In this document: positions 44,692-64,000 of the stretch, piece by piece
How positions within the stretch are numbered: position 1 is the stretch's first letter
Layout: each line of letters begins with the position of its first letter
NCBI GenBank assembly: GCA_041550555.1
Contig: JBFEOO010000011.1
Span: 2,138 to 66,137 of the forward strand
Direction of reading: 5' to 3'
Origin: Arenicellales bacterium
Lineage (GTDB): Bacteria; Pseudomonadota; Gammaproteobacteria; Arenicellales; JBFEOO01
DNA: 64,000 nucleotides
The notes under the pieces: model-generated
Seen by the model: the letters and a program-made list of their open reading frames with translations, nothing else
The model's database searches: none
What the model was told of the DNA's origin: nothing
Translations under genes and position numbers: made by a program

Positions 44692-44771
44692 CGTACCGCT
44701 CCCCCGATCGGGTGCTCGAACCGCCCAGGGCCGAGCCGTTGGTGCATCATTCTACGCGATAGCGGACCGAG

Positions 44772-46513: not shown

Positions 46514-46583
46514 CGTCAATATGCTTTCGTGCTGCCCGCGACGTGGCCTGCGAACGGGACTCGCCGGGAAACCCCGCCCGGCC

Positions 46584-47816: not shown

Positions 47817-47828
47817 TCGCCGACCCCG

Positions 47829-48584: not shown

Positions 48585-48611
48585 CGACCCGACCTCTACC
48601 GCGCAACCCGT

Positions 48612-49100
48612 TCAGCGCCGCGCCGCGGCCGGCAGGCGCCGTTGCACCGCGTCGGCCCAGCCCACGGCGACGACGGGCACGGCGGTCCCCCGCGCCCGCT
48701 CGCCGTTGCGTGCCGATTCACCAGCGGGCACCGCGACGTGACACTCGAAGCAGTCTATCTTCACGCCCGTATAGGCGTGGCAGCCGGCGCAGAACTGACC
48801 GGGGGCGTTGACGGCCACATAGCCGCCGTCCTCCCCGCGCGTGGCGTGACAGGCGATGCATTCGATCAGGCTGTGGCGTTTCGTTCGAATACCGTCGTGA
48901 ACGGTGCGATCCCGCTGGTGCTCCAGAAACTCCATGTGATCACGTCGCATGACGTCGCTCGGCTCCACGCACTGCTCACCCCGGCCGCGCGGCACGTCGG
49001 GCAGCGGCACGTCCGCGGCTGACGGCGGGGCGGGCAGCGCAAGCAGCACCGCGGCAAGCGTGATGCCCGCGAGCGTGCGGCGATACGCCGCGCCCGTCAC
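48612..49100 (-). CDS. dsrJ: Triheme cytochrome c DsrJ
   Basis: Signal anchor, three CxxCH sites (CIACH, CAGCH, CFECH), and the conserved upstream Cys in GEQCVEP. The GTG start lies 1 nt after the dsrL stop, preceded by GGGAGAG. Confidence 0.9.
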   Translation of the reverse strand: MTGAAYRRTLAGITLAAVLLALPAPPSAADVPLPDVPRGRGEQCVEPSDVMRRDHMEFLEHQRDRTVHDGIRTKRHSLIECIACHATRGEDGGYVAVNAPGQFCAGCHAYTGVKIDCFECHVAVPAGESARNGERARGTAVPVVAVGWADAVQRRLPAAARR

Positions 49101-49101
49101 C

Positions 49102-51051: not shown

Positions 51052-51104
51052 CGTCCTACTCTATGTCCTTGACCACCTTGTACCGGTCGGCCGCCGCACG
51101 CCCC

Positions 51105-52616: not shown

Positions 52617-52635
52617 GCTCGCTTTCGCCCTGGTC

Positions 52636-53376
52636 TCAATTGGCTCGAACGTCGCGGGACAGCCGCTCGGCCCACGGCGCCACGTGCCGCCGCTCTCTGG
52701 GGTCGTCCACCTGATTGCGGGTGGGGCTGAAGAAAACGCCCGGCGCATGCAGCAGCTTGCTGAACGGAAACACGATCATCAACCCGGCCACGAGCAGCAG
52801 ATGCACCAGCAGCAGCGGGTCAGCGGGCAGCGGCTGCCAGTCGAAGCGCAGCAGACCCAGCGTGAAGGCCTTGAGCGCCACGATATCGGTATGCCAGACG
52901 AATCTCATGAGCAGGCCGGTTGCCGCAATCGCAACGAGAAGCGCCAGCATGAGGTGGTCGGAGGGTGAGGAGATGTAGCGGATGCGGTCGACGAGCACGC
53001 GACGCAGCCACAGCCCCACCAGGCCGCCGAGCATCACGTAGCCTGCATACACACCCACCCACTGAATCATCGCCACCCATGACCAGAGCGGTTCCTGGAA
53101 GTAACGCAGATGCCGCAGCAGCACCAGCAGCAGCGCGGCATGGAAGAGCCAGCCGAACAGCCACGTCCACTTGGCGCCTTTGAAGAGACTCTCGAAGAAG
53201 ACCACCTCGCGCGCCATGCGCGCGACCACGCCACCGCGTGACACGGGCGCCGGCGTGGTTGGGATGATGAGCGGCGCCGGCGTGCGTGCGTAGACGACGA
53301 CCCGCAGCGCAACGCCGCCGATCAGCACGAGGGCGGCAGCGTAGAACAGCAGGGCGAAAAGTGCCGTCAGCAACAC
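52636..53376 (-). CDS. dsrM: NarI-like dihaem cytochrome b membrane subunit DsrM
   Basis: Five TM helices with conserved His (FHAALLLVLLRHLRY, HLLLVAGLMIVFPFSKLLH), HdrE/NarI-like. Position between dsrC and dsrK. Confidence 0.88.
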   Translation of the reverse strand: MLLTALFALLFYAAALVLIGGVALRVVVYARTPAPLIIPTTPAPVSRGGVVARMAREVVFFESLFKGAKWTWLFGWLFHAALLLVLLRHLRYFQEPLWSWVAMIQWVGVYAGYVMLGGLVGLWLRRVLVDRIRYISSPSDHLMLALLVAIAATGLLMRFVWHTDIVALKAFTLGLLRFDWQPLPADPLLLVHLLLVAGLMIVFPFSKLLHAPGVFFSPTRNQVDDPRERRHVAPWAERLSRDVRAN

Positions 53377-53423
53377 CCTCTACCCTTCCCGCGCGCCGGA
53401 ACCATCGACACCTGGGAAACGCC

Positions 53424-53439
53424 CTGCGGTGCCCCGCAG
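53424..53439 (-). other. Intra-operon RNA hairpin just after dsrC (CUGCGG-GGCA-CCGCAG)
   Basis: Perfect 6-bp stem with a GNNA-type tetraloop beginning 8 nt after the dsrC stop, followed by GGCGUUUCCC. It lies in the 70-nt dsrC-dsrM spacer. Confidence 0.4.
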
Positions 53440-53446
53440 CGCGGTC

Positions 53447-53779
53447 TCATACGCAGCCGGTCGGCTTGGGCAGACCAGCGTATTTACACGCCTGCTTCGC
53501 GGGACCGTAGGGAAACAGCTCATAGAGATAGCGGCTGTTGCCCTTGTCCTTACCGAGCTTCTTGCCGATCGCCTTGGTAAGCACCCGAACCGCCGGAGCA
53601 ATCTGGTACTCGTCGTAATACTCGCGGAGGAAATTAATGACCTCCCAATGGTTCTCCGTGAGCTGACAGTCGTCGATCTCGGCCATTTTCTCCGCAAGCT
53701 CTGGCGTCCAGTCGCTCAGGTTCTGCAGATATCCTTCTTCGTCCGTGTCGTAGACTTTTCCCTCGATCTCAAGTGTCAT
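53447..53779 (-). CDS. dsrC: Sulfur carrier / sulfite reductase substrate protein DsrC
   Basis: 110 aa. C-terminal arm CKYAGLPKPTGCV with both conserved Cys (penultimate residue Cys). AGGAGAAGG SD upstream. Confidence 0.95.
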   Translation of the reverse strand: MTLEIEGKVYDTDEEGYLQNLSDWTPELAEKMAEIDDCQLTENHWEVINFLREYYDEYQIAPAVRVLTKAIGKKLGKDKGNSRYLYELFPYGPAKQACKYAGLPKPTGCV

Positions 53780-53818
53780 GATCCTTCTCCTGTATTTAAT
53801 TGCACATACCCAATTCGT

Positions 53819-54121
53819 TCACAGCCAGGCCTGAACACGATCGTTCTCCACCGCCAGATCCACGAAGCCGTCGTAGCCGACTACCGTGACTCCGTCGATT
53901 ACATTGTCTGGCGCTATGCCTCTCGCATTGATGTCGGGCCCAAGCGCGAATACGCGGTGCTTCTCGAGTGCGCTGCGAATCGTCCCCTCCACAGCGGTGC
54001 CTTTCATGGCCGCGTAAACGGCGTCTTCGATCAGCAGAATGTCGCTGCCGCTGCGAGCCAGGCGCAGACACGTCTCGAGACTGTTTTTTTCGAACGGTGA
54101 CTTGTTGACCGTGTGCAACAT
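53819..54121 (-). CDS. dsrH: Sulfurtransferase complex subunit DsrH (TusB-like)
   Basis: 100 aa, MLHTVNKSPF..SLETCLRLA (conserved Cys), ILLIEDAVYAA. Confidence 0.87.
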   Translation of the reverse strand: MLHTVNKSPFEKNSLETCLRLARSGSDILLIEDAVYAAMKGTAVEGTIRSALEKHRVFALGPDINARGIAPDNVIDGVTVVGYDGFVDLAVENDRVQAWL

Positions 54122-54147
54122 TCGTCTCTGCGCCGCCGGTAAGTCTG

Positions 54148-54555
54148 CTAGAAATCCAGGATAACGTCCTGCTCTTCCATGAGGTCCGTCAGCTGTGCGG
54201 AATCGAGCACCTCGACGGGCACGATAAAGTCTTCCTCCGTCAGGCCGCGCCGCTGCATCGACTCCCTCTCGACGTAAAGCTTCTCCACGTCGTACATCTC
54301 GAGCGCACGATACGTTGGCGAGAAGTTCTTCATGTCACTCTCGGCGGTATCCTGCCCCTTCTTGAGCTGGTAGACACCGTCGTCGACGAACACCATGCTG
54401 ACGTCCTGATCGAAGGCGGCGCCGATCAGCACCACCTCGAGCCCCTCGAGCGCGTAGATGGTTCCGTACGGCGCGTGCCTGTTGATGTACATGAACCGCT
54501 TGACCACACCGCCGGGCGCCCCCTCTTCGTCCAGAAACTCCTCGTCGCTCGCCAT
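54148..54555 (-). CDS. dsrF: Sulfurtransferase complex subunit DsrF (TusC-like)
   Basis: VKRFMYINRHAPYGTIYALEGLEVVLIGAAFDQDVSMVFVDDGVYQL. ATG 54555 lies 7 nt after GAGG; GTG 54564 is an alternative. Confidence 0.88.
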   Translation of the reverse strand: MASDEEFLDEEGAPGGVVKRFMYINRHAPYGTIYALEGLEVVLIGAAFDQDVSMVFVDDGVYQLKKGQDTAESDMKNFSPTYRALEMYDVEKLYVERESMQRRGLTEEDFIVPVEVLDSAQLTDLMEEQDVILDF

Positions 54556-54598
54556 CGACAGCACCTCACTGGCCGGCCGGGGCCGTCATGCGCACCGC

Positions 54599-54700
54599 GC
54601 GGCTCGCGCCAATCCGACCGCGTCCGCGGACGACGCGCCCGATCCGGATGTCGGCGCACCGCGATCCACCCGTGTCGGGGAACCGTCGCGCGCGAGCCGC
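54599..54700 (-). repeat. 11-bp perfect inverted repeat (GCGGCTCGCGC / GCGCGAGCCGC) bracketing 80 nt inside the dsrE-dsrF spacer
   Basis: Arms at 54599-54609 and 54690-54700. The enclosed segment contains further GC-rich pairings (e.g. GUGCGCC..GGCGCGU on the mRNA strand). No credible ORF. Confidence 0.6.
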
Positions 54701-54751
54701 CGCTGCAACCGTCTCGATACCCTCGCCGAGCGTCTTCGCCACCGATCTGCC

Positions 54752-55144
54752 CTAGTCGCCGAAGACCATCAGGCGATCGGCCTGGATGCCAACCTCGACC
54801 AGCTGCCCGAGCCCGGATATGCGAAAGCCGGGAGCGATGTTGTCGGCATCCTTTCCCTGGCGCTTCGCCTCGCCGGCGTCGACGATGCCGCGGCGCTGCG
54901 CCGCCGCCACGCATACCACCATGTCGAGGCCGTGCTGCTCGGCGAGCTCCGACCAGCGCCTGACGATGTTGCGGTCGTCCTGCGGCGGCGTGGTGAGGCG
55001 CGACCCGTTGTTGACGCCGTCGTGATAGAAGAACACGCGCACGATCTCGTGGCCCTTGGCGAGCGCCGCCTTGGCGAACTGATAGGCGGTATCGGCAGCC
55101 TGGTGCGTGTACGGGCCTTCGTTCACCATGATGCCAAACTTCAC
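54752..55144 (-). CDS. dsrE: Sulfurtransferase complex subunit DsrE (TusD-like)
   Basis: (M)KFGIMVNEGPYTHQAADTAYQFAKAALAKGHEIVRVFFYHDGVNN, active-site Cys in MVVCVAAAQRRG. GTG start at 55142-55144, 20 nt after the dsrB stop. The longer ORF to 55606 lies inside dsrB. Confidence 0.9.
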   Translation of the reverse strand: MKFGIMVNEGPYTHQAADTAYQFAKAALAKGHEIVRVFFYHDGVNNGSRLTTPPQDDRNIVRRWSELAEQHGLDMVVCVAAAQRRGIVDAGEAKRQGKDADNIAPGFRISGLGQLVEVGIQADRLMVFGD

Positions 55145-55164
55145 CTCGACGCCCCCCGCTCGAG

Positions 55165-56250
55165 TCAAAACCGCATATACGAAGACGCGTTCAGGCTCTT
55201 GCGCGAGCCGCGCCAGTTGTCGATGTGGTATTTCGTGAACGGCAGCTCGGTGAGCTCGAAGAAACGGGGCCAGCCGATACGGTCTATCCAGTCGTTTATC
55301 CGCTCCCAGTCCTTGGCATCTTCCTTGTAGGTGCGAAGGATGCGCTTGACGATGGCTGTCGCCTCGGGCCAGCGCGGCGGATTGTTGGGCACGCCCGCTG
55401 CGACGAGCTTCTGGAAGCTCGGCCGACTGCGCGCATTGGAGTGGTTGCCGCCGACCCATATGGCCAGCTTCGTGTGCTCCGGATCGTTGATCTGCATCGG
55501 CGGACAGGGTGGATAGCACGCGCCGCAGCAGATGCATTTCTTCTCGTCGACTTCGAGGCTGGGCTTGCCGTTGACCTGCGCGGGACGTATGGCGGCCACG
55601 GGACAACGCGCGACGACGGCGGGCCGTTCGCAGACGTTGGCAACGAGATCGTGGTTGATACGCGGAGGTTTCGTGTGCTGGACGTTGATCGCGATGTCGC
55701 CCTGTCCGCCGCAGTTGATCTGGCAGCAGGACGTCGTGATGTGCACGCGGTTCGGCATGTTGCAGTTCTTGAACTCGTCGATGAGCTCATCCATCATCGC
55801 CTTGACGACGCCGGACGCGTCCGTTCCCGGAATATCGCAATGCAGCCACCCCTGTGTGTGTGAGATGCTCGCCACCGAGTTGGCCGTTCCCCCGACGACG
55901 AACCCTGACGACTCGAGCGCCGCGATCAACGGCTCGACCTTGGTATCGTCCGCAACCATGTACTCGATGTTGCTGCGGATCGTGAAACGCACGTAGCCGT
56001 CGGCGTACGTGTCGCCGATGTCACAGAGCTTGCGCAGCGTGAAGACATCGAGGATGCGCTGCGTCCCCGCCTTCACCGTCCAGATCTCATCGCCGCTGTG
56101 AGCGACGTGCCGCAGCACGCCCGGTCGCGGGTGATCGTGGTAACGCCACTGGCCGAAATTCTTCACCATGACCGGATGCATGTACTGAAAGCCGTCCGGG
56201 CAGCCCGACTCAATGGGCATGCGGTGTTTCTTCTGCTGCGCCTGTGCCAT
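55165..56250 (-). CDS. dsrB: Reverse-type dissimilatory sulfite reductase beta subunit
   Basis: 361 aa. Sulfite reductase 4Fe-4S/siroheme region TSCCQINCGG and ferredoxin insert CPVAAIRP..CICCGACYPPCP. Confidence 0.95.
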   Translation of the reverse strand: MAQAQQKKHRMPIESGCPDGFQYMHPVMVKNFGQWRYHDHPRPGVLRHVAHSGDEIWTVKAGTQRILDVFTLRKLCDIGDTYADGYVRFTIRSNIEYMVADDTKVEPLIAALESSGFVVGGTANSVASISHTQGWLHCDIPGTDASGVVKAMMDELIDEFKNCNMPNRVHITTSCCQINCGGQGDIAINVQHTKPPRINHDLVANVCERPAVVARCPVAAIRPAQVNGKPSLEVDEKKCICCGACYPPCPPMQINDPEHTKLAIWVGGNHSNARSRPSFQKLVAAGVPNNPPRWPEATAIVKRILRTYKEDAKDWERINDWIDRIGWPRFFELTELPFTKYHIDNWRGSRKSLNASSYMRF

Positions 56251-56294
56251 CTCGATGCTCCGCTAGGGGTTGCCGCCGCGCCGTCCGCCCTGTC

Positions 56295-57554
56295 TCAGGC
56301 GGCTTCTTCGGAACCGGCCTTGCGCTGAAACCACTTCACCGCCTCCTCGTCCCAGCCGTCCATTCGCACATAGGAGCTCTCCCGTGGATGAACGATCATG
56401 TTGGGGTCCACGTCGACGCCCACGCCCTCGAGAAAATTGACAAGCCCGATTCGCTCGATCATCTCCCCGATGCGCTCGTGCTCGAGCCCGTTCTCGGCCC
56501 AGAAATCGATCGATTCCTCGGCGAGCTCGACGAGCCTCTCGTAGTCTTCCTCGTCCTCGAGCTTCATGAACGGCACCATTACAGTGCCCATCAGATCGCC
56601 GATCTTCAGGGTGCGCTTGCCACCGATCAACACCGAGACGCCTTTGTCATCTCCCGGCGACAGGGCGTGGGGCATGACGTTGAGACAGTGCATGCATTTG
56701 ACGCAGTTGCGATCGTCGATGGCGAAGGTGTCCTCGTCGGTGAGCGACATACACTTCGTCGGACATCGACTGATGACGTTGTCGATCACATACTGCCGGC
56801 CCTTTCTCTCGACGAAAGCCTTGACCTGATCTTGATCGATCTTGATCTCGTCGCGCCACGTGCCAATGACGGCGAAGTCGGCGCGCTCGATGGCGTTCAT
56901 GCAGTCGTTCGGACATCCGGAAACTTTGAACTTGAACTTGTACGGCAGCGCAGGTCTATGAATATCGTCGGTGAAGTTGTTCACCAGCGCGCGGTGGACC
57001 TTCTGCTCGTTGCAGCACGACTGCTCACAGCGTGCGGAGCCAACGCACGACTGGGCGGTGCGGACACACGGCCCCGCTCCGCCGAGATCGAAGCCGTAGT
57101 CGTTGATCTCGTCGAAGAAATGCTGGGTGTTCTCGGTCGTGGCACCGATGAACATGATGTTGCCGGTCTGGCCGTGGAAGGTCACCAGCCCCGAGCCCCA
57201 CTTCTCCCAGCTGTCGCCGAGCTGTCGCAGAATATCAGTGGTGTAGAAGTTCCCGGCGGGCGGCTGCACGCGCAGCGTATGAAACTCCTTCGATTCCGGA
57301 AACTGTTTGCCGACCTCCGAGAAGCGCGGGATGATTCCGCCGCCGTAGCCGTATACGCTAACGGTGCCGCCCTTCCAGTAACCCTTCCGCGTCTCGTAGG
57401 AGTGCTCGAGCTGTCCGAGAAGATCGTTAGCCACACCGTTGATGCGGGTGTCCGGGTGCTGATCGCGCAGCCGTTTGATCCCGGAGACGAAACTCGGCCA
57501 TGGGCCGTTCTCGAGCTCGTCGATCATCGGAGTGGCGTGCTTGTGGTTCCCCAT
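56295..57554 (-). CDS. dsrA: Reverse-type dissimilatory sulfite reductase alpha subunit
   Basis: MGNHKHATPMIDELENGPWPSFV.., cluster/siroheme Cys CVGSARCEQSCC, SGCPNDCMNA, ferredoxin insert CPTKC..CVKCMHCLNVMP. GAGGAG lies 7 nt before ATG 57554. Confidence 0.95.
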   Translation of the reverse strand: MGNHKHATPMIDELENGPWPSFVSGIKRLRDQHPDTRINGVANDLLGQLEHSYETRKGYWKGGTVSVYGYGGGIIPRFSEVGKQFPESKEFHTLRVQPPAGNFYTTDILRQLGDSWEKWGSGLVTFHGQTGNIMFIGATTENTQHFFDEINDYGFDLGGAGPCVRTAQSCVGSARCEQSCCNEQKVHRALVNNFTDDIHRPALPYKFKFKVSGCPNDCMNAIERADFAVIGTWRDEIKIDQDQVKAFVERKGRQYVIDNVISRCPTKCMSLTDEDTFAIDDRNCVKCMHCLNVMPHALSPGDDKGVSVLIGGKRTLKIGDLMGTVMVPFMKLEDEEDYERLVELAEESIDFWAENGLEHERIGEMIERIGLVNFLEGVGVDVDPNMIVHPRESSYVRMDGWDEEAVKWFQRKAGSEEAA

Positions 57555-57671
57555 CGATTCGCTCCTCGCTCTCGCACATGTTCCCGCGCCGTATCGCAAG
57601 CGCCCGACGCCGCGGCGGGCCGCCGTGCGGCCCCTCCCAGCGCATTGTATTGGCCCGACCGAATCGACGGA

Positions 57672-57807
57672 CCCTCCCGATGTGGAGGGCGACGCCGCGC
57701 CCGCCCTATCTCGTTGGAGATAGACGCAGGCGGGGGCCTGCGGCCCTGCCGCGCGCAGCGCCGGCCGAGCAACGCCGCGCGCGTTTACAATCAGACACAT
57801 AACGCGC
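57672..57807. promoter_or_regulatory. Inverted repeats in the dsrA / TauD-like divergent control region
   Basis: CCCTCC-N6-GGAGGG (57672-57689), CTATCTC-GTTG-GAGATAG (57706-57723, perfect 18-bp palindrome), GCGCGTT-N15-AACGCGC (57779-57807). The only -10-like hexamer on the dsrA strand is TACAAT (57649-57644), with no good -35. Confidence 0.35.
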
Positions 57808-57886
57808 AGCGCGCGCAAGCAGTACGATACCGTCCGGCGTGCCGCGCTACCCCGCCCTGGGGCGTCATTCCCCTCCTTTGGGAAAG

Positions 57887-57915
57887 CTTACAGACGCGAA
57901 GCCTTGCTTTAGAAT
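57887..57915 (+). promoter_or_regulatory. Candidate sigma70 promoter for the TauD-like operon (CTTACA-N17-TAGAAT)
   Basis: -35 at 57887-57892 and -10 at 57910-57915 with a 17-nt spacer, 28 nt upstream of ATG 57944, in a low-GC3 stretch that is unlikely to be coding. Confidence 0.4.
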
Positions 57916-57943
57916 CCCAGCGGAATTCGATCTCCGCGAGTCC

Positions 57944-58912
57944 ATGCTGTTGAGCGATTTCGGACCACCCAACGCCGCCGAGCTGCCCCAGCGGCCGTCG
58001 TTGCCCCTTGGGCAGCCGAGCGCAGCGACGCGCTTGGATCGCTACCTGCGCTGGCGCGACGCCAAGCTCGGTGCATGGGAGCGCTGGCGGGCGGACCCGT
58101 GGGTGGAGCTGGTCGACCCCGGCCATCTGAGCAGCGCGGAGCGCACGGCGCTGCTGGCGCGCGTACGGGACGCCAACATGGTGCTCTACGCCTGCCGGTA
58201 TCCCGGCCGGGTGACCCCGGGCTGCTTGCGGCAGCTCGGCGCGCAGCTGGGACTGAGGCGGGTCGACCCCACCCCCTACGCCGACGCCGACGGGCTGAGC
58301 GCGCTGCGGGTAGGCGGCGGCGGCGAGCACGAGTACATTCCCTACACCGACCGACGCCTGAGCTGGCACACCGACGGCTACTACAACGACCCAGCCCATC
58401 CGGTGCGCGCCTTCGTGCTGCATTGCGCGCGGGCGGCGGCGCACGGCGGCGAGAGCTGGCTGCTCGATCACGAGCTCGCCTGTCTGATGCTTCGCGACGC
58501 CGACGCCGCGCACCTGGACGCGCTGGCGCAGCCCGACGCCATGACGATTCCGGCCAACGTGCGCGACGGGCGGGAGCTGCGGCCCGAGCGCCGCGGCCCG
58601 GTCTTGTCCGCGGACCCCCACAGCGGCCGGCTGCACATGCGCTACACGGCGCGCAAGCGTTTCGTCATCTGGAGCCCGCGCCCCGAGGTCCAAGCGGCCG
58701 CCGCCTGTCTCGATGAGCTGCTGAGCGCGCCGTCACCCTTCGTGCTGCGCCACCGCCTCGAGCCAGGCGAGGGGCTGATCTGCAACAACGTGCTGCATGC
58801 GCGCTCGGCTTTCTGCGATGATCCGGACAGTGGCAGCTCGCGGCTCGTCTACCGGGCGCGCTATCTCGACCCCGTCGCGGCAGCGACCCCTGCCATGGCC
58901 TTCGCCTCGTAG
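57944..58912 (+). CDS. TauD/TfdA-family Fe(II)/2-oxoglutarate dioxygenase
   Basis: Facial triad candidates SWHTDGYY (HxD) and NNVLHARSAF. 2OG-binding Arg in RLVYRARY. ATG 57944 chosen because the upstream 35 codons have low GC3. Confidence 0.78.
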   Translation: MLLSDFGPPNAAELPQRPSLPLGQPSAATRLDRYLRWRDAKLGAWERWRADPWVELVDPGHLSSAERTALLARVRDANMVLYACRYPGRVTPGCLRQLGAQLGLRRVDPTPYADADGLSALRVGGGGEHEYIPYTDRRLSWHTDGYYNDPAHPVRAFVLHCARAAAHGGESWLLDHELACLMLRDADAAHLDALAQPDAMTIPANVRDGRELRPERRGPVLSADPHSGRLHMRYTARKRFVIWSPRPEVQAAAACLDELLSAPSPFVLRHRLEPGEGLICNNVLHARSAFCDDPDSGSSRLVYRARYLDPVAAATPAMAFAS

Positions 58913-58916
58913 CACA

Positions 58917-59111
58917 GTGATCTGGCTGAGCGAATTGCTGCTGCAGCACCACGACGTGGCGAGCTTCGACGAGCTGACCCGGCTGGTCGGTGCCGAGGCC
59001 CGCGCGGGAGCCCGTTTTCTGCGCTTCGACGTGCGCCCACCTTTTCCCGACACGCCGGAGAATTGGGAAGACCGGTTGGAGGCAGCCTTCACCGGCGCCG
59101 TCGAGCCCTGA
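58917..59111 (+). CDS. Small hypothetical protein (about 64 aa)
   Basis: High-GC3 reading frame filling the space between the TauD-like stop (58912) and the Cas6-like start (59115). GTG 58917 has no clear SD, so the start is uncertain. Confidence 0.4.
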   Translation: MIWLSELLLQHHDVASFDELTRLVGAEARAGARFLRFDVRPPFPDTPENWEDRLEAAFTGAVEP

Positions 59112-59114
59112 ACC

Positions 59115-59807
59115 ATGTACTGGCGAGAGCCGCCTGCTGTCGATCGCTACCATGTCCCGGACGAGGTGGTCGACGTCGCATTCAGGATCACATGCGCGCA
59201 GCTGCCGCTCGACCACGCCCACGCGCTGTTCGAAGCGGTTGCCGCAGCATTGCCCTGGCTCGCCGATGAGCCTGCAGCCGGTATACATCCCATTCACGGC
59301 GCGGCATCGGGAAACGGCTGGTATCGGCCCGAATCGGCGGGGGGAGGCGTGCTGAACCTCGCCAAGCGCACGCGCCTGGTGCTGCGCCTGCCTCGCGATC
59401 GCGTGCGGGACGCAACCGCGCTGAGCGGAAACACACTGCTGGTCGACGGGCACGCTATGACCGTCGGGGCTTCCCGGGTGCGCGCGTTGAGCACGCAAAC
59501 GACGCTGTTCGCGCGCTACGTGGTCGACGCGGCACAGCGTGGCGAGGACGCCTTCGCTACCGAGCTCGTGGACGAGCTGCGCGACTGCGGTATCACCGTG
59601 CACAAGCTCCTCTGCGGGCGCGAGCATGCGATCAGCACGCCGGCGCAGCCGCTGCGCACGCGCAGCGTGATGCTCGCCGATCTCGACGTTGCCCATTCGG
59701 TGCGCCTGCAGCAGCTGGGCGCGGGACCGGGGCGCCAGCTTGGCTGCGGCCTGTTCATCCCGCACAAGGACATCGGCGCGCCACAGGGCGGCGACGACGC
59801 GCGCTGA
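59115..59807 (+). CDS. Cas6/Cmx6-like RAMP protein (orphan, no CRISPR context)
   Basis: MYWREPPAVDRYHVPDEVVDVAFRI..LPLDHAHAL N-terminus. C-terminal glycine-rich loop GAGPGRQLGCG fits the RAMP signature GhGxxxxxGhG, followed by LFIPHK. The family resemblance is recalled from memory and not searched. Confidence 0.6.
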   Translation: MYWREPPAVDRYHVPDEVVDVAFRITCAQLPLDHAHALFEAVAAALPWLADEPAAGIHPIHGAASGNGWYRPESAGGGVLNLAKRTRLVLRLPRDRVRDATALSGNTLLVDGHAMTVGASRVRALSTQTTLFARYVVDAAQRGEDAFATELVDELRDCGITVHKLLCGREHAISTPAQPLRTRSVMLADLDVAHSVRLQQLGAGPGRQLGCGLFIPHKDIGAPQGGDDAR

Positions 59808-59940
59808 CATCCGCAACGACCACCGCCGATGACGCGGCGATGCACACGGGCTTGCAATGTCGCTCACGGGACGCCGGTGATTCCCTCGCATCGTTCGGCC
59901 GCCGGACGCATGCAAATGGCTGCTGAGGAGTGGACGCACT

Positions 59941-60144
59941 ATGAACGAGAAGCAGGAACTGATCGCGAAGATGCTCGAGCTACAGAAGAAATTCGCCGAG
60001 TACGAGCACGAGTTCGGGGTGAGCGCGACGGAGTATTTCGCACCGCCTCCCGGACATCCGCTGGAGAATTACAGCGACGAGTTCAACCGACTGGCCGATC
60101 GATTGCGGGAGCTGGCCCACGAGGAACAAGGCTCGCGGGGCTAG
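59941..60144 (+). CDS. Small acidic hypothetical protein (67 aa)
   Basis: ATG preceded by GAGGAG (10-nt spacing). High GC3. Helical, Glu/Lys-rich sequence. Confidence 0.5.
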   Translation: MNEKQELIAKMLELQKKFAEYEHEFGVSATEYFAPPPGHPLENYSDEFNRLADRLRELAHEEQGSRG

Positions 60145-60812
60145 GCCTCCGCCCACATGCGCACGAGATTGGCGTAGACGTGGTCGACGCCGGCGAGCGC
60201 CTCGCTTCGCGGCGCCACCTTGAGCAGCTGCTCGCGGGCGCAATGCAGCTCGTAGAGCAGGGCCCTGCGGGCAGCGTCACGCACGAGGCTCTGCACCCAC
60301 GTGACCGCCACCAGGCGCGTTCCCCGGGTCACGGCTGCGACGTGATGGATGCTCGATGCGGGGTAGAGCACGGCGTCGCCGGCGGGCCATTTGATCGACT
60401 GCTCGCCGAAGGCCGTCTCGACGACCAGCTCGCCGCCGTCGTAGTCGGCCGGCTCGCTCAGGAAAACGGTGACGGCGATGTCCGAACGGTAGGGTGTTCC
60501 GGATCCCATCACCGGGTCGTCGACGTGAGAACCGTACGCCATGCCCGACCGGTAGCGCGCGTAGAATGGCGCCGCCGCCCTGAGCGGCAGCGCAGCGCCT
60601 TGGTAGACGGGATGTCGAACGAGGTTACCCATCACGAGCTCGTTGAGCTCCGCCACGATGGACGCATCGCGCGCGAGCTCTTCATTGTTTTTCACCGGAG
60701 CCGCCATTTTTCCCGCGGAGAGTCTGCCGTCGACAAACGGCGCCGTGGCCAGCTTGCTCTGAATCGAGGCGAGCTGCGCCGGGCCGAGAACATGGGGGAT
60801 CCGTATCAGCAT
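60141..60812 (-). CDS. PKHD-type Fe(II)/2OG hydroxylase (PiuC/YbiX family)
   Basis: Collinear with E. coli YbiX: MLIRIPHVL.., VKNNEEL, YGSHVDDP (HxD), FLSEPADYDGGELVV, LYPASSIHHVAAVTRGTRLV, C-terminal NLVRMWAEA. Start ATG 60812. Confidence 0.88.
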   Translation of the reverse strand: MLIRIPHVLGPAQLASIQSKLATAPFVDGRLSAGKMAAPVKNNEELARDASIVAELNELVMGNLVRHPVYQGAALPLRAAAPFYARYRSGMAYGSHVDDPVMGSGTPYRSDIAVTVFLSEPADYDGGELVVETAFGEQSIKWPAGDAVLYPASSIHHVAAVTRGTRLVAVTWVQSLVRDAARRALLYELHCAREQLLKVAPRSEALAGVDHVYANLVRMWAEA

Positions 60813-60871
60813 GGGGAAGCGTCCACGCCACGAAGCATCGGGCTGCGTGGACGCGAGGAGGTTGGCGGCGA

Positions 60872-61459
60872 TTGAAAGTTCGCGCACGCAGCCGGTGGCG
60901 CGACCGTGAGCGCCGGCGCTCGCTCGATGACAATGCCGTTGCGCTCGCCTACGTGATCTGGGAGATCGCCCTCACAGCGGCCAAGAATCTTCATGCGGAG
61001 GGCTTCGCGTACGAGAACGACACGCGACGCATCGAGGTCATCTGTGAGTATTTGGTCTTTCTCGTCCACGTCACCGACAGGCTTTGTCATGAGCGCATGA
61101 GCGATGCCGAGCGCACCCGCTTCGTGACCCGACTCGCCGCGGACTCCGCTCGCCACGTGCAGCGCAATCGCGAGGAGCTCTCCGGCGCCGGCGACTATCG
61201 CGAGGCGTACGTCGAGCTGTTGAACCGTCGAGCCAAGGACTACGCGGAAACGTCGTTTCGCGGTGGCGGCCCTGGCTACGCCATGCTGCGAACCTTCGCG
61301 GCGCATATCCAGACAGTGCTCGGAGCGGGACAGACCAATCGCTGGGCCGCCGATCACATCATGGCGATCGACGCGCCGGAGGCCGTCCGCCATCTCGGTC
61401 AGGCTTTCAACAATCTGCTCGATAGCTCCGCCCCGTCGCCGCCGCCCGAGGCCGAGTGA
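60872..61459 (+). CDS. Hypothetical protein (195 aa)
   Basis: High-GC3 ORF divergent from the PiuC-like gene. TTG 60872 lies 10 nt after GAGGAGG; GTG 60953 is an alternative. No recognisable domain. Confidence 0.5.
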   Translation: MKVRARSRWRDRERRRSLDDNAVALAYVIWEIALTAAKNLHAEGFAYENDTRRIEVICEYLVFLVHVTDRLCHERMSDAERTRFVTRLAADSARHVQRNREELSGAGDYREAYVELLNRRAKDYAETSFRGGGPGYAMLRTFAAHIQTVLGAGQTNRWAADHIMAIDAPEAVRHLGQAFNNLLDSSAPSPPPEAE

Positions 61460-61477
61460 CGAGCCCGCTAGCCGAAT

Positions 61478-61672
61478 TCAGCCCTTCCAGGCTTCGGCAT
61501 GGGTGGTCTCCTTCCCCATGCCGTCGTCGTAGCCCGCTTGATAGGCCTCGCTGAGACGTTGCTCCTCGCGCTTGGGCGTCTGAAGGTAGCCGCCGACCCA
61601 ACCCAGGATGTACTCCCTGCTGACACCCATCGTTTCGAGCCGATCGATCGTCTCATAATAGAAAGTGTCCAT
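61478..61672 (-). CDS. Small hypothetical protein (64 aa)
   Basis: MDTFYYETIDRLETMGVSREYILGWVGGY... ATG 61672 lies 6 nt after GGGAG; upstream in-frame starts are at 61678 and 61690. Confidence 0.5.
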   Translation of the reverse strand: MDTFYYETIDRLETMGVSREYILGWVGGYLQTPKREEQRLSEAYQAGYDDGMGKETTHAEAWKG

Positions 61673-61883
61673 CTGCATCTCCCTGCGCACCCTCGGAGCG
61701 CCCGACGTGTCGCCGCCGGGGAATCTGCGACGCGGCGAACCGAATAGCCGACGGTCTACTAGGCCCCCCGGCGGCGGGTCCCGCCCTCTCTAGGCGCGGC
61801 AACGCTGATCCGCGGAGCGCCGAGCGTCGAGCCGCGGTCTACCCCGTCGTGACCGTATAGGCGATCGGCGGCGCGACCGACAA

Positions 61884-62177
61884 TTACCCAAAAGGGAGAC
61901 CTTCGCCGATTTTGTAGCGCTTGCGAAGCCGGGCGCGAATGTCCCATACGCAGCGGACCCCTGCGAAGATAGTGACCAGATCCCCTTCGCGCACCGGCAC
62001 CGTCTCGCCGTCGACACAGCGAAGCACGGCCGCTCCGGCTTCGAGATAACATGTCTCGGCGTGATCGTACTGCCATTCGAACGTCGAGACATCTTTCTCC
62101 CATTGAGGCCACGCCTCGACCCCCAAGACCTCGAGCTTCAAGGGCGAAGGATTGTGTTCGACCACCACCGAAGTCAT
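61884..62177 (-). CDS. Cupin_3 (DUF861/EutQ-like) small cupin protein
   Basis: 97 aa. W..WEKDVSTFEWQYDHAETCYLEAGAAVL....GETVPVREGDLVTIFAGVRCVWDI..RLRKRY fits the single-barrel cupin_3 pattern. Confidence 0.7.
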   Translation of the reverse strand: MTSVVVEHNPSPLKLEVLGVEAWPQWEKDVSTFEWQYDHAETCYLEAGAAVLRCVDGETVPVREGDLVTIFAGVRCVWDIRARLRKRYKIGEGLPFG

Positions 62178-62335
62178 GTGTGCTCCCCGCCTCGGCGCGG
62201 CAACCCGTCAGGGGGCCGAACTCCGCCCGCGATCGTCTTGTCTGGCCACGCGTGTTGCGCCGGCGCCGCCGTTCGAGTGATCATGCGGCCGTCCGCTGGG
62301 CCGGGGAAAACCCCACACCGGACGTCCGCATCGCC

Positions 62336-62698
62336 ATGAAGCTGGACATCGACATCGAACACCGCCGTTTCACGCTGGAGGTGCCGAATGACGTCGTTGC
62401 GGGCGCTGACGCCTTCTTCGCCAAGATGGACGAGGACATGGCCGGAGGATGGCAGATGAGCCGTCGCTATGTCGAGCATCCCGATCGGCTTCAGCGCTGC
62501 CAGATTGCCGCCGACAGGCTGTTGACCTCGCTGCATTCAGGCAACGAAAGTCTCACGCTCATGATGGCCGGTTACATCCTGAGCCGACTCCCCGACGTTC
62601 GCAGGGTAGAGATCGACACCAATGGGGAGATGTTCAACACCCGCTTCGTGCTCGCCTCGGGACAGATCCTCGCCGCAGCCGATGGCGACAACGACTGA
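62336..62698 (+). CDS. Hypothetical protein (120 aa)
   Basis: ATG 62336 (MKLDIDIEHRRF..) within ORF 62051-62698. The 3' end overlaps the next gene by 17 nt. No recognisable domain. Confidence 0.55.
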   Translation: MKLDIDIEHRRFTLEVPNDVVAGADAFFAKMDEDMAGGWQMSRRYVEHPDRLQRCQIAADRLLTSLHSGNESLTLMMAGYILSRLPDVRRVEIDTNGEMFNTRFVLASGQILAAADGDND

Positions 62699-63317
62699 CG
62701 GCGAGGGGGGGCGCAATGTGGCCGCCCGCGGCCATGCCGCGCTCAACGAGCTCGGCACGCGCACATTCATCTACGAGCTGCACGACGCGCTCGACGCCGA
62801 TCTGTGCGCCGAGATCGTGCGTCGCTTCGAACTCAAGGCCGATCAGCAGTACGCCGGGCGCATCGGCGAGCAGGCCGTCGCAGACCCTTCCGTGAAGCGC
62901 TCGACGGATCTCCGCATCAGCGGACGCCCCGATTGGGAGGACGTCGACGGGCAGCTGCACCGCTCGCTGCAGCAGGCGCTGAGCCTCGTCGCGGGGCTGC
63001 ATCCCTTTTTCTCCCACAACGCGTTCAAGGACATCGGCTACAACGTGCAGCGCACCCGGGCCGGGGAGTATTACCACTGGCACATCGACAGCGGCCCGGG
63101 CTCGTTCAGCCAGAGGCAGCTGGTGGCCATCTGGTATCTCAACGACGTTGCGGGGCCCGGCGGCGAGACGGAGTTTCCGCTCCAGAACGTCAGGGTCTCA
63201 CCGCAGAGGGGCAAGCTCGTGCTGTTCCCGCCCTTCTGGACACACCTCCACCGAGGCGCCACGCTCCATCGCGGGACCAAATACATTGCCACGACATGGG
63301 TGTGCTTCGCGGGCTAG
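62682..63317 (+). CDS. Prolyl-4-hydroxylase-like 2OG-Fe(II) oxygenase
   Basis: YYHWHIDSG (HxD), FWTHLHRGATL (distal His), KYIATTWV (2OG-binding Lys/Arg position). Start ATG 62682. Confidence 0.75.
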   Translation: MATTTDGEGGRNVAARGHAALNELGTRTFIYELHDALDADLCAEIVRRFELKADQQYAGRIGEQAVADPSVKRSTDLRISGRPDWEDVDGQLHRSLQQALSLVAGLHPFFSHNAFKDIGYNVQRTRAGEYYHWHIDSGPGSFSQRQLVAIWYLNDVAGPGGETEFPLQNVRVSPQRGKLVLFPPFWTHLHRGATLHRGTKYIATTWVCFAG

Positions 63318-63341
63318 GCCGCCGGGCACCGCGGGCGTCGC

Positions 63342-63560
63342 TCAGTCGTCCTCGGAGGGTGTCCGCTCGCGGTGGGCGCTGAGCAAGCGTTCGGCCTCGC
63401 TCTCATCGGCGGCGAACACCATGCGGATGGTGTCGGCATCGGTAGCCGGCTGACGTTGGCGGAGCTCGCGCACGCGCCGCTTGGCGTCGCGGTACGACTC
63501 GGTCTCGCCGATCATCACGAGCGTGCGCAGCGGCGAGACCCGGTAGATGAAGTACGCCAT
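63342..63560 (-). CDS. Small hypothetical protein (72 aa)
   Basis: ATG-initiated ORF downstream of, and co-directional with, the DsrE3-like gene. High GC3. No recognisable motif. Confidence 0.4.
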   Translation of the reverse strand: MAYFIYRVSPLRTLVMIGETESYRDAKRRVRELRQRQPATDADTIRMVFAADESEAERLLSAHRERTPSEDD

Positions 63561-63698
63561 CGCGCTGCGCTCAGCCGGGCCGCGATCGGGCGCACCCCGT
63601 CGGGCAAGACACCGTGGCCGGCAGCGCCCCCCTGTGACCCCGGCATCGACGGCGAGACCCGCCCCACGAGCGCAGCCGTCTCGACACGGCGGCGGCGC

Positions 63699-64000
63699 TC
63701 ACACGAACAGCGTGATGTCAGCCTCGCTGGCGAAATCCAGAAACGTCGCAGCGCCGCCCAGTTCGATCTCGTCGATAAGCTCCTCGCGGTGGATATCGAA
63801 CAGATCGATCGTCATTTGGCAGCCAATCAGCTTGACTTCCGCCTCCAGGCAAAGATGGCGAAGATCCTCGACGCTGGCCACGCCCTTCGCCTTGATCTTG
63901 CTCTTCATCATGCGGGTCATCATGGTCTCCATGCCGGGCACTGCGGTGCCGAGCACGGGGAACCACTTGTCCATGCCGAGCGGCATGGGCATGCCCGGGT
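63699..64000 (-). CDS. DsrE/DsrF-like (COG2210, DsrE3-type) sulfurtransferase, C-terminal part (5' end outside window)
   Basis: ..VKLIGCQMTIDLF.. with the conserved active-site Cys and the tail GGAATFLDFASEADITLFV. The frame remains open to the window edge. Confidence 0.7.
   Translation of the reverse strand, partial: PGMPMPLGMDKWFPVLGTAVPGMETMMTRMMKSKIKAKGVASVEDLRHLCLEAEVKLIGCQMTIDLFDIHREELIDEIELGGAATFLDFASEADITLFV

Follow-up and report, generated by a model that had tools for sequence, protein, structure and literature searches.

A Cas6-like gene is found divergently next to dsrAB in sulfur oxidisers of the Gamma- and Betaproteobacteria, and it is a conserved neighbour of dsr, not a stray gene. 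It was encountered in a 64-kb stretch of Arenicellales DNA, the whole of which is here called the window. By its sequence the encoded protein is clearly a Cas6-family protein by descent, and it is very probably a non-CRISPR, exapted Cas6 homolog dedicated to Dsr. A preliminary description of the locus had proposed that a RAMP fold was recruited to a non-CRISPR role here, and the conserved linkage to dsr, without any array, supports this. The linkage seems to be new, and with it a component of CRISPR would have found another use in core energy metabolism. In the literature searched, no paper was found that discusses a Dsr-linked Cas6 or Alvin_1248-1250, the corresponding genes of Allochromatium vinosum; these locus tags appear only in a supplementary expression table (PMC11267869).

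The locus contains the following features:
56295-57554, minus strand: dsrA (PF01077/PF03460), the invariant divergent neighbour, heading the dsrABEFHCMKL... operon
57555-57943, no strand: divergent control region of 389 bp between dsrA and the TauD-like gene
57707-57722, no strand: palindrome TATCTC-N4-GAGATA (family consensus TA[TC]C[CT]C-N4-G[AG]G[AG]TA)
57944-58912, plus strand: gene for a TauD/TfdA-family Fe(II)/2-oxoglutarate dioxygenase (PF02668), first gene of the operon
58917-59111, plus strand: gene for a small acidic protein of 64 aa, GTG start (homologs and alignment)
59115-59807, plus strand: Cas6-like gene, 230 aa (profiles, AlphaFold2/Foldseek, conservation, synteny)
59941-60144, plus strand: orf67, 67 aa, 133 nt 3' of the Cas6-like gene (tblastn synteny)
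60872-61459, plus strand: orf195, a conserved protein of the same gene set, syntenic in most loci

The genes of the plus-strand trio are tightly packed, with 4 nt between the TauD-like ORF and the 64-aa ORF and 3 nt between the latter and the Cas6-like gene. Both gaps, and the 389-bp region across which the trio diverges from dsrA, had been noted previously, and these coordinates hold. The locus had also been presented as a three-gene operon. The trio itself stands, but it represents the reduced form, at this locus, of a more extensive gene set that is conserved and variable, whose recurrent members are the TauD-like enzyme, the small acidic protein, a helical protein of 240 aa, orf195, orf67, and a cysteine-less DsrC paralog. 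Synteny of orf67 was detected by tblastn in about 40 loci, and it is called as a gene in the related loci L065 and L068. It gave no family match in the profile searches, and it probably belongs to the same transcription unit as the Cas6-like gene. The product of orf195 is homologous (E 3e-20) to that of a 202-aa gene directly upstream of TauD in the loci of a sister clade, clade 2. The helical protein of about 240 aa, similar to Alvin_1249, has no match in Pfam, PDB, or PADLOC. A sigma-70-like promoter match for the plus-strand operon is located at 57887-57915. Across the loci, the most constant neighbour of the Cas6-like gene is dsrAB, not the dioxygenase.

The first gene of the operon had been taken to encode a TauD/TfdA-type Fe(II)/2-oxoglutarate dioxygenase, and this identification is borne out. 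The protein, which is 322 aa long when read from the ATG (a longer GTG start is present at 57839), matches PF02668 with 83.6 bits, and its weak matches to TmpA, TMLD, and BBOX are far below the equivalog cutoffs. The motifs WHTDG, LHARS, and RLVYRAR are found in the translation and are preserved in the alignment of clade-2 orthologs; read by eye, the first two appear to make up the HxD...H iron-binding triad. The profile match, this putative triad, and the arginine binding 2-oxoglutarate place ORF 57944-58912 in the TauD/TfdA family. The gene adjoins the Cas6-like gene in most loci, and the proteins from the two gene arrangements (window type and clade 2) are 48% identical, so that the neighbourhood is conserved in relatives with the TauD-like gene included. 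The preliminary description had missed, however, that the oxygenase alone does not define the locus; what characterises it is its association with the dsr operon and the DsrC paralogs. In A. vinosum, an anaerobic phototroph, the module is present without a TauD-like gene. PADLOC also reported a 'CAS-associated 2OG', but this was rejected as evidence of CRISPR. It is a generic match of the 2OG-FeII_Oxy_3 type over 81 positions, and it falls on PiuC-like and P4H-like neighbours, not on the TauD-like gene.

The adjacency of the small ORF to the two larger genes holds as first described, but it had been overlooked that its product represents a conserved family of about 300 members. The 64-aa protein has 309 homologs and is orthologous to A. 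vinosum Alvin_1250. The median pI is approximately 4.6, and the motif DVxPPFPDTPENWEDRLEAAF is characteristic. No Pfam domain was found across the 309 homologs, nor any NCBIfam match, and the AlphaFold2 model (pLDDT 88) has no fold match and the sequence no match in PDB. In several genomes NCBI names the protein DsrC, which is a misnomer, as it contains no cysteine and hhalign against the DsrC of the window gave a probability of 0.1%. It was likewise considered whether it equals the DUF6967 protein of the clade-2 loci; no homology could be detected.

When it comes to the Cas6-like protein itself, profile and structure searches both returned strong Cas6 matches. PF09559 (Cas6) covers the whole length of the protein encoded by ORF 59115-59807 (E 2.7e-60, 204 bits, cutoff 26.7), the NCBIfam model TIGR02807 (cas6_cmx6) gives 116.1 bits (cutoff 98.85), and there are matches to six Cas6 profiles of PADLOC, the best with an E of 1.8e-57. 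The AlphaFold2 model (pLDDT 86.9) displays two ferredoxin-like (RRM) halves in tandem. Foldseek found 8fcu_B and 8fcj_B to be the most similar PDB structures (E 3e-16, TM 0.77/0.83), followed by 5yi6, 3i4h/3pkm, and Cse3, and the approximately 40 best matches are all Cas6 or Cse3. The Cas6 layout, the two ferredoxin-like halves, and the placement in the Cas6/Cmx6 (type I-MYXAN) family, all recognised in the preliminary description, are thus confirmed. With its 230 aa, the protein belongs to a dsr-linked clade of Cmx6-like proteins. About 165 clusters (50% identity) match it at E<=1e-30 and 1023 at E<=1e-3, and the former set roughly corresponds to the depth of the dsr-linked clades. A tblastn search of plasmids with the window protein gave no match, while the clade-2 protein retrieved bona fide cyanobacterial cas6 genes.

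Residue conservation was computed over 127 diverse relatives. The glycine-rich loop near the C-terminus, G202-x-G204-x5-G210-x-G212, has glycines that are conserved to 91-95% in clade 1 and are invariant (100%) in clade 2, and in alignments it coincides with the corresponding loops in CAST Cas6 and in bona fide Cmx6. The pair D33-H34 falls on the DH of a bona fide type I-MYXAN Cas6. The two motifs singled out earlier, a GhGxxxxxGhG loop and a conserved histidine at the start of helix 1, therefore both hold, the loop glycines being at least 91% conserved among the 127 relatives. There are two putative catalytic histidines. H34 is 91% conserved and corresponds to a histidine in bona fide Cmx6 and an asparagine in CAST Cas6, while H58 is 87-100% conserved and corresponds to a histidine in CAST Cas6 and an asparagine in bona fide Cmx6. 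A catalytic residue mapped by experiment was looked for in the Cmx6-like subfamily and not found. R87, R91, and R207 are conserved in the dsr-linked clade and common to CAST Cas6, and Q199 is conserved as well. The inserted and nearly invariant SGNGW loop (residues 65-69), H61, R85, and the P-H-K motif at the C-terminus are gains of the dsr-linked clade which bona fide Cas6 proteins lack, and such clade-specific invariant residues fit a changed substrate. The median pI of the clade is 6.0, i.e., slightly acidic, compared to about 9.2 for the CAST Cas6 fragment.

In about 55 of the 61 related gamma- and betaproteobacterial genomes the Cas6-like gene and dsrAB are divergently oriented, and synteny of the type dsrB-dsrA followed by TauD-small-Cas6 is likewise counted in about 55 of 61. 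The module Alvin_1248-1250 of A. vinosum is likewise divergent from dsrAB, and the gene has the same dsr-divergent position in the complete genome of Sulfuricaulis limicola and in Arenicellales loci. Clade 2, found in Denitratisoma and Rhodocyclales/Burkholderiales, comprises shorter proteins without the SGNGW loop, encoded at the same position by dsr. The gene immediately downstream encodes a DsrC paralog in 39 of 58 loci; in about 16 more such a paralog is encoded nearby in convergent orientation, and the DsrC paralogs in operon linkage end in ...RKGGY. In one Thiomargarita locus the pair of Cas6-like protein and DsrC2 is kept, and dsrAB was not detected there by tblastn in the 10 kb of flanking sequence. 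In some loci genes encoding a TusA-domain protein and a rhodanese are also co-operonic with the Cas6-like gene.

The gene very probably encodes a descendant of a type I-MYXAN/I-D-like Cas6 that no longer belongs to CRISPR-Cas and is now a permanent accessory of reverse (oxidative) Dsr. The following course of events might explain how it arose and acts. An ancestor of the proteobacterial sulfur oxidisers would have captured one Cas6 ribonuclease from a type I CRISPR system. The glycine-rich loop and the conserved arginines would recognise a specific hairpin RNA, which would probably be cut by a His/Lys site (H34, H58, H217-K218). The target would be a dsr-region transcript or some other dedicated RNA, and Dsr expression would be tuned after transcription, possibly with the O2-dependent TauD-like dioxygenase and the DsrC paralog as input of oxygen or sulfur status. 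That the protein still binds or cuts hairpin RNA and acts in this way on dsr expression is the likeliest of the mechanisms considered, at somewhat less than an even chance. The statement as a whole, an exapted Dsr-dedicated Cas6 homolog with an RNA-processing mechanism, falls just short of even. The most specific version, where the captured Cas6 is a dedicated post-transcriptional switch of reverse Dsr that would cut or clamp one particular hairpin in RNA of the dsr region and be controlled by the TauD-like enzyme and the DsrC paralog, is possible and rather unlikely.

The conservation of the loop glycines, R87/R91/R207, Q199, D33-H34, and H58 counts in favour of the RNA mechanism. The explanation as a whole also draws on the expression of the module in A. 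vinosum, where Alvin_1248-1250 co-vary and do so opposite to dsrAB. On S0 compared to sulfide, Alvin_1248, Alvin_1249, and Alvin_1250 are up 12.5-, 6.3-, and 17.7-fold, while the ratios for dsrAB are 0.24 and 0.17; on pyrite dsrAB drops 25-fold while Alvin_1248-1250 stay flat. All these figures are a third-party recalculation of microarray ratios (PMC11267869 Table S2). Counting against the RNA mechanism are the median pI of 6.0, the clade-specific invariant residues, the operator-like nature of the palindrome, the fact that those partners that belong to known families are sulfur carriers or oxygenases and none are RNA proteins, and the lack of any RNA target in the searches of the dsr region.

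In these searches the only direct or inverted repeats to recur within 44000-64000 were matches that look like chance, and no repeat-like hairpin recurred across related loci. Many loci have a GC-rich hairpin approximately 65-115 nt upstream of dsrA (core at 57617-57633 in the window), but it was rejected as a Cas6 substrate; its sequence is not conserved, and a crude scan was inconsistent. Folding of the 246 nt upstream of dsrA (z = -1.9) and of the 196-nt dsrE-dsrF spacer (z = +1.15) was not decisive in either case. When the 3' half of an authentic I-MYXAN repeat was searched for, the only match in the window was antisense, with four mismatches, inside the TauD-like gene at about 58181-58201. 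The match is also found in contigs L065-L067, which encode an identical protein, and as an RNA target it was judged to be due to chance.

The main rival to the RNA mechanism is that the Cas6 fold has been turned to a non-RNA role, as a protein- or ligand-binding accessory of the sulfur relay. Here the protein would dock, for example, the cysteine-less DsrC paralog, the small acidic protein, TusA, or a cofactor, and H58, H61, H217, K218, and the SGNGW loop would make up a binding site whose ligand would be a metal, an anion, or a peptide tail. The near-neutral to acidic pI and the invariant residues without counterpart in CRISPR Cas6 proteins fit such a role, as do the tight operon linkage to the DsrC paralogs (...RKGGY), the TusA-domain protein, and the rhodanese, and the searches that gave no RNA target. 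The very acidic small partner (pI 4.6) could fill the old RNA cleft. However, the glycine-rich loop and the arginines common to RNA-bound Cas6 are under strong constraint, and we know of no RAMP protein that functions without nucleic acid. Nor can C211 of the glycine-rich loop be a persulfide carrier, because it is replaced by phenylalanine in 16 of the 127 relatives. Such a non-RNA role is doubtful, yet a real possibility.

In every clade the palindrome lies some 150-260 nt 5' of dsrA, and of 49 intergenic regions 29 contain its strict form, where 0.02 would be expected. It was also considered as a repeat-like RNA hairpin (TATCCC-N4-GGGATA). This was rejected since, at non-Watson-Crick positions, wobble pairing would be possible in 10 cases for one strand and in 15 for the other; without a strand bias a DNA operator is more likely, and the conserved palindrome is probably just that. 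The Cas6-like protein could then be the DNA-binding regulator that controls both divergent promoters through it, but this is improbable. Cas6 proteins are, to our knowledge, not sequence-specific binders of double-stranded DNA, and the Cas6-like clade has an acidic pI. The DsrC-family proteins are more obvious candidates, as they contain a helix-turn-helix-like motif and DsrC was reportedly found by Grimm et al. in 2010 to bind dsr promoter DNA. What speaks for the Cas6-like protein as regulator is that the palindrome occurs wherever the gene does (gamma, beta, and clade-2 loci, and the window), that the operon contains no gene for a classical transcription factor, and that the module and dsr seem anti-correlated in one data set (PMC11267869).

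No CRISPR array was found within the 64-kb window, and Cas1/2/3/4/5/7/8/10 profiles matched none of its 54 ORFs, in line with the original observation that the 64 kb contain neither an array nor another cas gene. The window gene thus lacks the cmx8/cas neighbours and the array of a type I-MYXAN system. Arrays were not found in 71 related sequences (about 1.1 Mb) either, while the positive-control locus L071, which does have the type I-MYXAN cas neighbours, was detected, and the Pfam-annotated genes of loci L062, L064, L065, L068, L069, and L070 include no other Cas genes. That the gene is an ordinary cas6 displaced from its cas operon and serving an array elsewhere, the alternative raised in the preliminary description, is close to refuted: the protein does score above the TIGR02807 'equivalog' cutoff and A. 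vinosum does carry three arrays elsewhere in its genome (PMC3368242), but the gene has a fixed position by dsrA in more than 60 genomes from two classes and two subclades, its product is only 26% identical to bona fide I-MYXAN Cas6, 1.1 Mb of flanks contain no array, and S. limicola has the gene and zero CRISPR loci (PMC5024460).

The type I-MYXAN/I-D Cas6 (Cmx6; TIGR02807, PF09559), e.g., that encoded by cas6 of Synechocystis sp. PCC 6714 pSYLB, is of the same family and aligns over the full length. Both proteins are about 200-230 aa long and have the two-RRM fold, D-H before helix 1, and the motif GxGxxRxLGCGxF. They differ in sequence (26% identity) and in context, as the bona fide gene heads a cas6-cas3-cmx8-cas7-cas5-cas4/1-cas2 operon with a 9-repeat array, all of which is missing around the window gene. 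The window clade further adds the SGNGW loop, H58/H61, R85, and PHK, and is acidic, not basic. The closest solved structure is the type I-B CAST Cas6 (PDB 8FCJ/8FCU chain B; sequence profile E 2.3e-22), which shares the G-I-H-P motif (H58), R87, R91, R207, and the glycine-rich loop. CAST Cas6, however, belongs to a transposon-encoded Cascade with bound crRNA. The SGNGW loop, H34, and PHK are absent from it, and its aligned fragment has a pI of about 9.2.

The Dsr accessory genes (dsrEFH, dsrC, dsrR, dsrS, and dsrN) and the Cys-less 'RspA-type' DsrC are likewise physically linked to dsrAB, but the present module lies outside the described dsrABEFHCMKLJOPNRS cluster, on the opposite strand, and no Dsr protein is related to the Cas6-like family. 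CRISPR-associated transposons and the dev operon of Myxococcus xanthus are other examples of Cas components selected for something beyond adaptive immunity. Such cases retain several Cas subunits, and usually the crRNA too, while here a single Cas6 homolog is found in an array-less core energy-metabolism locus. Exaptation of Cas components is a recurrent theme (PMC12669027).

If the proposed exaptation is true, it would be a widespread and clean case of a lone Cas6 strongly selected outside any CRISPR-Cas system. The TIGR02807 'equivalog' systematically mislabels the dsr-linked proteins as 'type I-MYXAN Cas6/Cmx6', and with this labelling the number of CRISPR-Cas remnants in sulfur oxidisers can be overestimated. 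Sulfur microbiology gains a conserved and so far unstudied set of genes immediately upstream of dsrA, and since Alvin_1248-1250 belong to the genetically tractable A. vinosum, a role in rDsr regulation or assistance is testable by knockouts. Should the switch reading prove true, Cas6 nuclease would have a CRISPR-independent housekeeping role in core energy metabolism, and we know of no other such use that has been described.

The Cas6-like gene of the window is the last of three plus-strand ORFs that are divergent from dsrA:

57887-57915: sigma-70-like promoter match for the plus-strand operon
57944-58912, plus strand: TauD-like ORF, 322 aa from its ATG (357 aa from an upstream GTG at 57839)
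58917-59111, plus strand: small ORF, 64 aa, GTG start
59115-59807, plus strand: Cas6-like ORF, 230 aa

The gaps within the trio are 4 nt and then 3 nt. On the minus strand dsrA starts at 57554, which leaves 389 bp between the divergent genes; the gaps and the 389 bp agree with the preliminary description. This had also taken the first gene for a TauD-type dioxygenase, and its product does belong to the TauD/TfdA family (PF02668, 83.6 bits), with HxD...H motifs seen in the translated ORF. Three Fe(II)/2OG-type oxygenases and a cupin are found inside 6 kb next to dsrA, with synteny kept in most relatives. Besides the TauD-like gene these are:

60141-60812, minus strand: PKHD/PiuC-like oxygenase
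61884-62177, minus strand: cupin
62682-63317, plus strand: P4H-like oxygenase

The PADLOC profile 'CAS-associated 2OG' matches both 2OG-FeII_Oxy_3 proteins of the window, apparently as a generic domain match. In the minus-strand dsr operon the dsrE-dsrF spacer is unusually long (196 nt, 54556-54751; about 13 nt in Allochromatium vinosum), and its predicted fold is no better than that of shuffles (z = +1.15). Two further features are ordinary and unrelated to the Cas6-like finding: a bacterial RNase P RNA class A at 24319-24774 on the minus strand (311 bits), and, at about 1-24000, ORFs that from their N-terminal sequences alone resemble a dcw (cell-division/cell-wall) cluster containing secA and lpxC.

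By descent the window protein belongs to the Cas6 superfamily, and within it to the PF09559/TIGR02807 family. It covers the whole Pfam model PF09559 'Cas6' (204 bits, E 2.7e-60), scores 116.1 bits against NCBIfam TIGR02807 cas6_cmx6 (cutoff 98.85) and is matched by six PADLOC Cas6 profiles. An AlphaFold2 model with 40 homologs as input (pLDDT 86.9, pTM 0.83) displays the two ferredoxin-like halves that had been proposed, and its top fold matches in the PDB are Cas6 throughout: first the type I-B CAST Cas6 8fcu_B/8fcj_B (E 3e-16, TM 0.77/0.83), then 5yi6, Pyrococcus Cas6 and Cse3. The family sequence profile retrieves the same CAST Cas6 chain (E 2.3e-22).

When one genome per species was scanned, 61 loci were found, encoding relatives that are 40-56% identical. 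The proteins encoded around the Cas6-like gene in the window served as tblastn queries to follow synteny across them. Where the contig is long enough, dsrB-dsrA lie on one strand and the TauD-like, small and Cas6-like genes on the other, in about 55 of these 61 loci, so the linkage first seen in the window is kept among its relatives. Usually orf67, PKHD/PiuC-type and P4H-type 2OG oxygenases, orf195 and orf70 follow the Cas6-like gene. The genomes with these loci are those of sulfur oxidisers among the Gamma- and Betaproteobacteria, e.g., Thiohalobacter, Sulfuricaulis, Ectothiorhodospiraceae, Thiomargarita, Casimicrobiaceae, and Usitatibacter. The operon of the anaerobic phototroph A. vinosum is without the TauD-like gene and consists of Alvin_1250 (small; directly upstream of dsrA, Alvin_1251), Alvin_1249 (241 aa, without known domain) and Alvin_1248 (PF09559). 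A gene like Alvin_1249 occupies the gap between the TauD-like and Cas6-like genes in the betaproteobacterial and several gammaproteobacterial loci, and in Sulfuricaulis limicola, where all four genes are present, a DsrC paralog and a rhodanese come after them.

In 39 of 58 loci the Cas6-like gene is immediately followed by the gene for a DsrC-family paralog, here called DsrC2, and in some 16 more this paralog is convergent within about 0.8 kb, so that about 55 of the 58 have it nearby; it is missing near the Cas6-like gene in the window, in A. vinosum and in one other locus. DsrC2 has neither of the two DsrC cysteines, and its C-terminus (...AGLPESRRKGGY) has a conserved Gly-Gly-Tyr end. Examples from the related loci are:

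L064, 10775-11113: DsrC2 paralog
L068, 10776-11117: DsrC2 paralog
L030, 10712-11053: DsrC2 paralog (about 50 other loci likewise)

On a Thiomargarita contig the Cas6-like and DsrC2 genes are still paired, though tblastn shows no dsrAB in the flanking 10 kb.

The small ORF encodes a very acidic protein (pI 4.6). About 300 proteins, 59-68 aa in length, make up its conserved family, and Alvin_1250 is one of them. In many genomes the small protein carries the NCBI/UniRef name 'sulfur relay protein DsrC', but it has no detectable homology to DsrC and no cysteine. The same misnaming is found on the homologs P0137, P0150, P0156, P0238 and others, so the erroneous annotation is spreading.

With the window protein as query, 1.84 billion cluster representatives were scanned; 1023 clusters matched at E ≤ 1e-3, 507 at E ≤ 1e-10 and 165 at E ≤ 1e-30. 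Of the 150 best, nearly all contain an inserted, almost invariant S-G-N-G-W loop, which is disordered in the AlphaFold2 model. A few proteins at E ~1e-34 are without it, and a search with one of these (P0387) led to a second clade of 197-199 aa from Rhodocyclales and Burkholderiales. In this clade 2 the Cas6-like gene is likewise divergent from dsrA, and the gene order is DUF6967 (72 aa), Cas6-like, a TusA-domain protein, one or two DsrC paralogs, a 187-202-aa protein and TauD-like. The TauD-like protein is 48% identical to that of the window, and the 202-aa protein is homologous to orf195 (E 3e-20). DUF6967 (PF22295), encoded just upstream of the Cas6-like gene in two clade-2 loci (L069, 9786-10004; L070, 9694-9912), has no detectable relatedness to the 64-aa protein of the window and may be a non-homologous replacement in the small-protein slot. 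Since two diverged clades with differing gene orders agree in their partners and in where they lie relative to dsrA, comparative gene order gives strong evidence that the Cas6-like gene is functionally linked to dsr rather than hitch-hiking.

How the protein acts at the Dsr locus we infer from what has been conserved. Both dsr-linked clades share with CRISPR Cas6 the residues D20, D33 and Q199, R207 and C211 of the loop, F214-x-P216, the central-strand R87 (R or K) and R91, and all four glycines of the RAMP glycine-rich loop that had been pointed out earlier. H34 is found in 91% of clade 1 (the proteins with the SGNGW loop) and 73% of clade 2, and aligns with D-H of bona fide Cmx6 and with N in CAST Cas6. 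H58 (87% and 100%, respectively) aligns with H in CAST Cas6 and N in Synechocystis Cas6, at a position which we take to be that of His46 of Pyrococcus furiosus Cas6, after helix 1. Confined to the dsr-linked proteins are H61, R85, a C-terminal P-H217-K218 and, in clade 1, the SGNGW loop. With a median pI of 6.0, against about 9.2 for the aligned CAST Cas6 fragment, these proteins are acidic or nearly neutral. We read this as an RNA-binding core that appears to be kept, with a remodelled active site and a reduced general nucleic-acid-binding surface, a combination that leaves two models alive. According to the first, the protein would be specialised in binding or cutting RNA, with one dedicated target; that it regulates Dsr in this way is a tentative reading, to which we give somewhat less than an even chance. 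According to the second, to which we give a somewhat smaller chance, the fold would now serve the sulfur relay by binding a protein or a ligand, a non-RNA accessory role.

A dedicated RNA target might be sought in the dsrA/TauD intergenic regions, where two elements recur:

57707-57722: palindrome TA[TC]C[CT]C-N4-G[AG]G[AG]TA, window copy, embedded in a longer GC stem at about 57697-57737
57617-57633: core of a GC-rich stem-loop, GGGCCGC-CGT-GCGGCCC

The palindrome is found 150-260 nt upstream of dsrA in gammaproteobacterial, betaproteobacterial and clade-2 loci (among them A. vinosum, L062, as well as L069, L070 and about 45 others), often with a second related site about 35 nt nearer dsrA. 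The strict pattern is present in 29 of 49 intergenic regions, against 0.02 expected from shuffles, and betaproteobacterial and clade-2 loci have degenerate forms. Its mispaired positions are G-U-compatible in 10 cases on one strand and 15 on the other; selection on an RNA helix is thus not indicated, and this candidate was rejected. The palindrome looks like a putative DNA operator for a dimeric regulator of the dsr promoter; that the Cas6-like protein itself binds DNA is very improbable. Many loci have the stem-loop 65-115 nt ahead of the dsrA start codon (at similar positions in L008, L019, L026, L031, L059, and L062), possibly as an element in the 5' UTR of dsr transcripts. Its structure recurs while its sequence does not, and no repeat-like element recurring within loci was found; the loci examined thus revealed no substrate for the Cas6-like protein.

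In the A. vinosum transcriptome table Alvin_1248 is entered as 'CRISPR-associated protein, Cas6-related' (PMC11267869 Table S2). On S0 relative to sulfide (2013 microarrays, recalculated by the authors) Alvin_1248/1249/1250 have ratios of 12.5/6.3/17.7, i.e., up 6-18-fold, while dsrA/dsrB are down 4-6-fold (0.24/0.17); on pyrite relative to sulfide (RNA-seq) the three are unchanged (1.12/0.97/0.90), while dsrA/dsrB are down about 25-fold (0.038/0.046) (PMC11267869 Table S2). Alvin_1248-1250 thus behave as one expressed unit that is not co-regulated with dsr, and that in one comparison goes in the opposite direction. These second-hand data would fit, though weakly, a regulatory role that is negative or conditional.

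Judged by the window, the related loci and one complete genome, the Cas6-like gene is almost certainly not a displaced cas6 of a CRISPR system. Tandem Repeats Finder and a repeat finder detected no array in the 64-kb window, and among its 54 ORFs the Cas6-like protein is the sole one matching cas profiles of PADLOC, in agreement with the array-less and partner-less locus first described. A simple array finder run on 72 sequences (1.1 Mb) flagged only the positive control, a real type I-MYXAN locus on plasmid pSYLB of Synechocystis PCC 6714 (cas6-cas3-cmx8-cas7-cas5-cas4/1-cas2, nine 36-nt repeats). The bona fide Cas6 encoded there shares only 26% identity with the window protein. Arrays do occur elsewhere in the A. 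vinosum genome, but S. limicola HA5T, whose genome is complete, carries the Cas6-like gene and has zero CRISPR loci by CRISPRfinder (PMC5024460). Two features that define a type I-MYXAN Cas6, neighbouring cas genes and an array, are both missing at the locus of the window protein. Of the dsr-linked proteins tested, all but the divergent P0342 (87.5 bits) score above 98.85, the cutoff of the TIGR02807 'equivalog' model: Alvin_1248 reaches 118 bits, the S. limicola protein 129 and clade 2 139-146. Scores in the two clades run from 116 to 146 bits, with the window ORF, P0049, P0392, P0473, and Alvin_1248 as cases in point. This explains why most of them bear the NCBI/PGAP name 'type I-MYXAN CRISPR-associated protein Cas6/Cmx6' with no array beside them.

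Profiles, model and array search together confirm the preliminary description of an orphan Cas6/Cmx6-like RAMP protein in an operon with a TauD-type dioxygenase. It had also called such a pairing undescribed, and no paper was found that discusses Alvin_1248-1250-type genes or Cas6 tied to dsr, TauD, DsrC or TusA, in a search that left many subscription papers outside its scope, where a passing mention is possible. Recent CRISPR classification papers treat exaptation in general terms only. There is little doubt that a widespread, strongly conserved and CRISPR-independent Cas6 homolog is wired to the reverse-Dsr sulfur-oxidation locus. The finding thus goes beyond a single orphan gene, and the functional context is new for a member of the Cas6 family.
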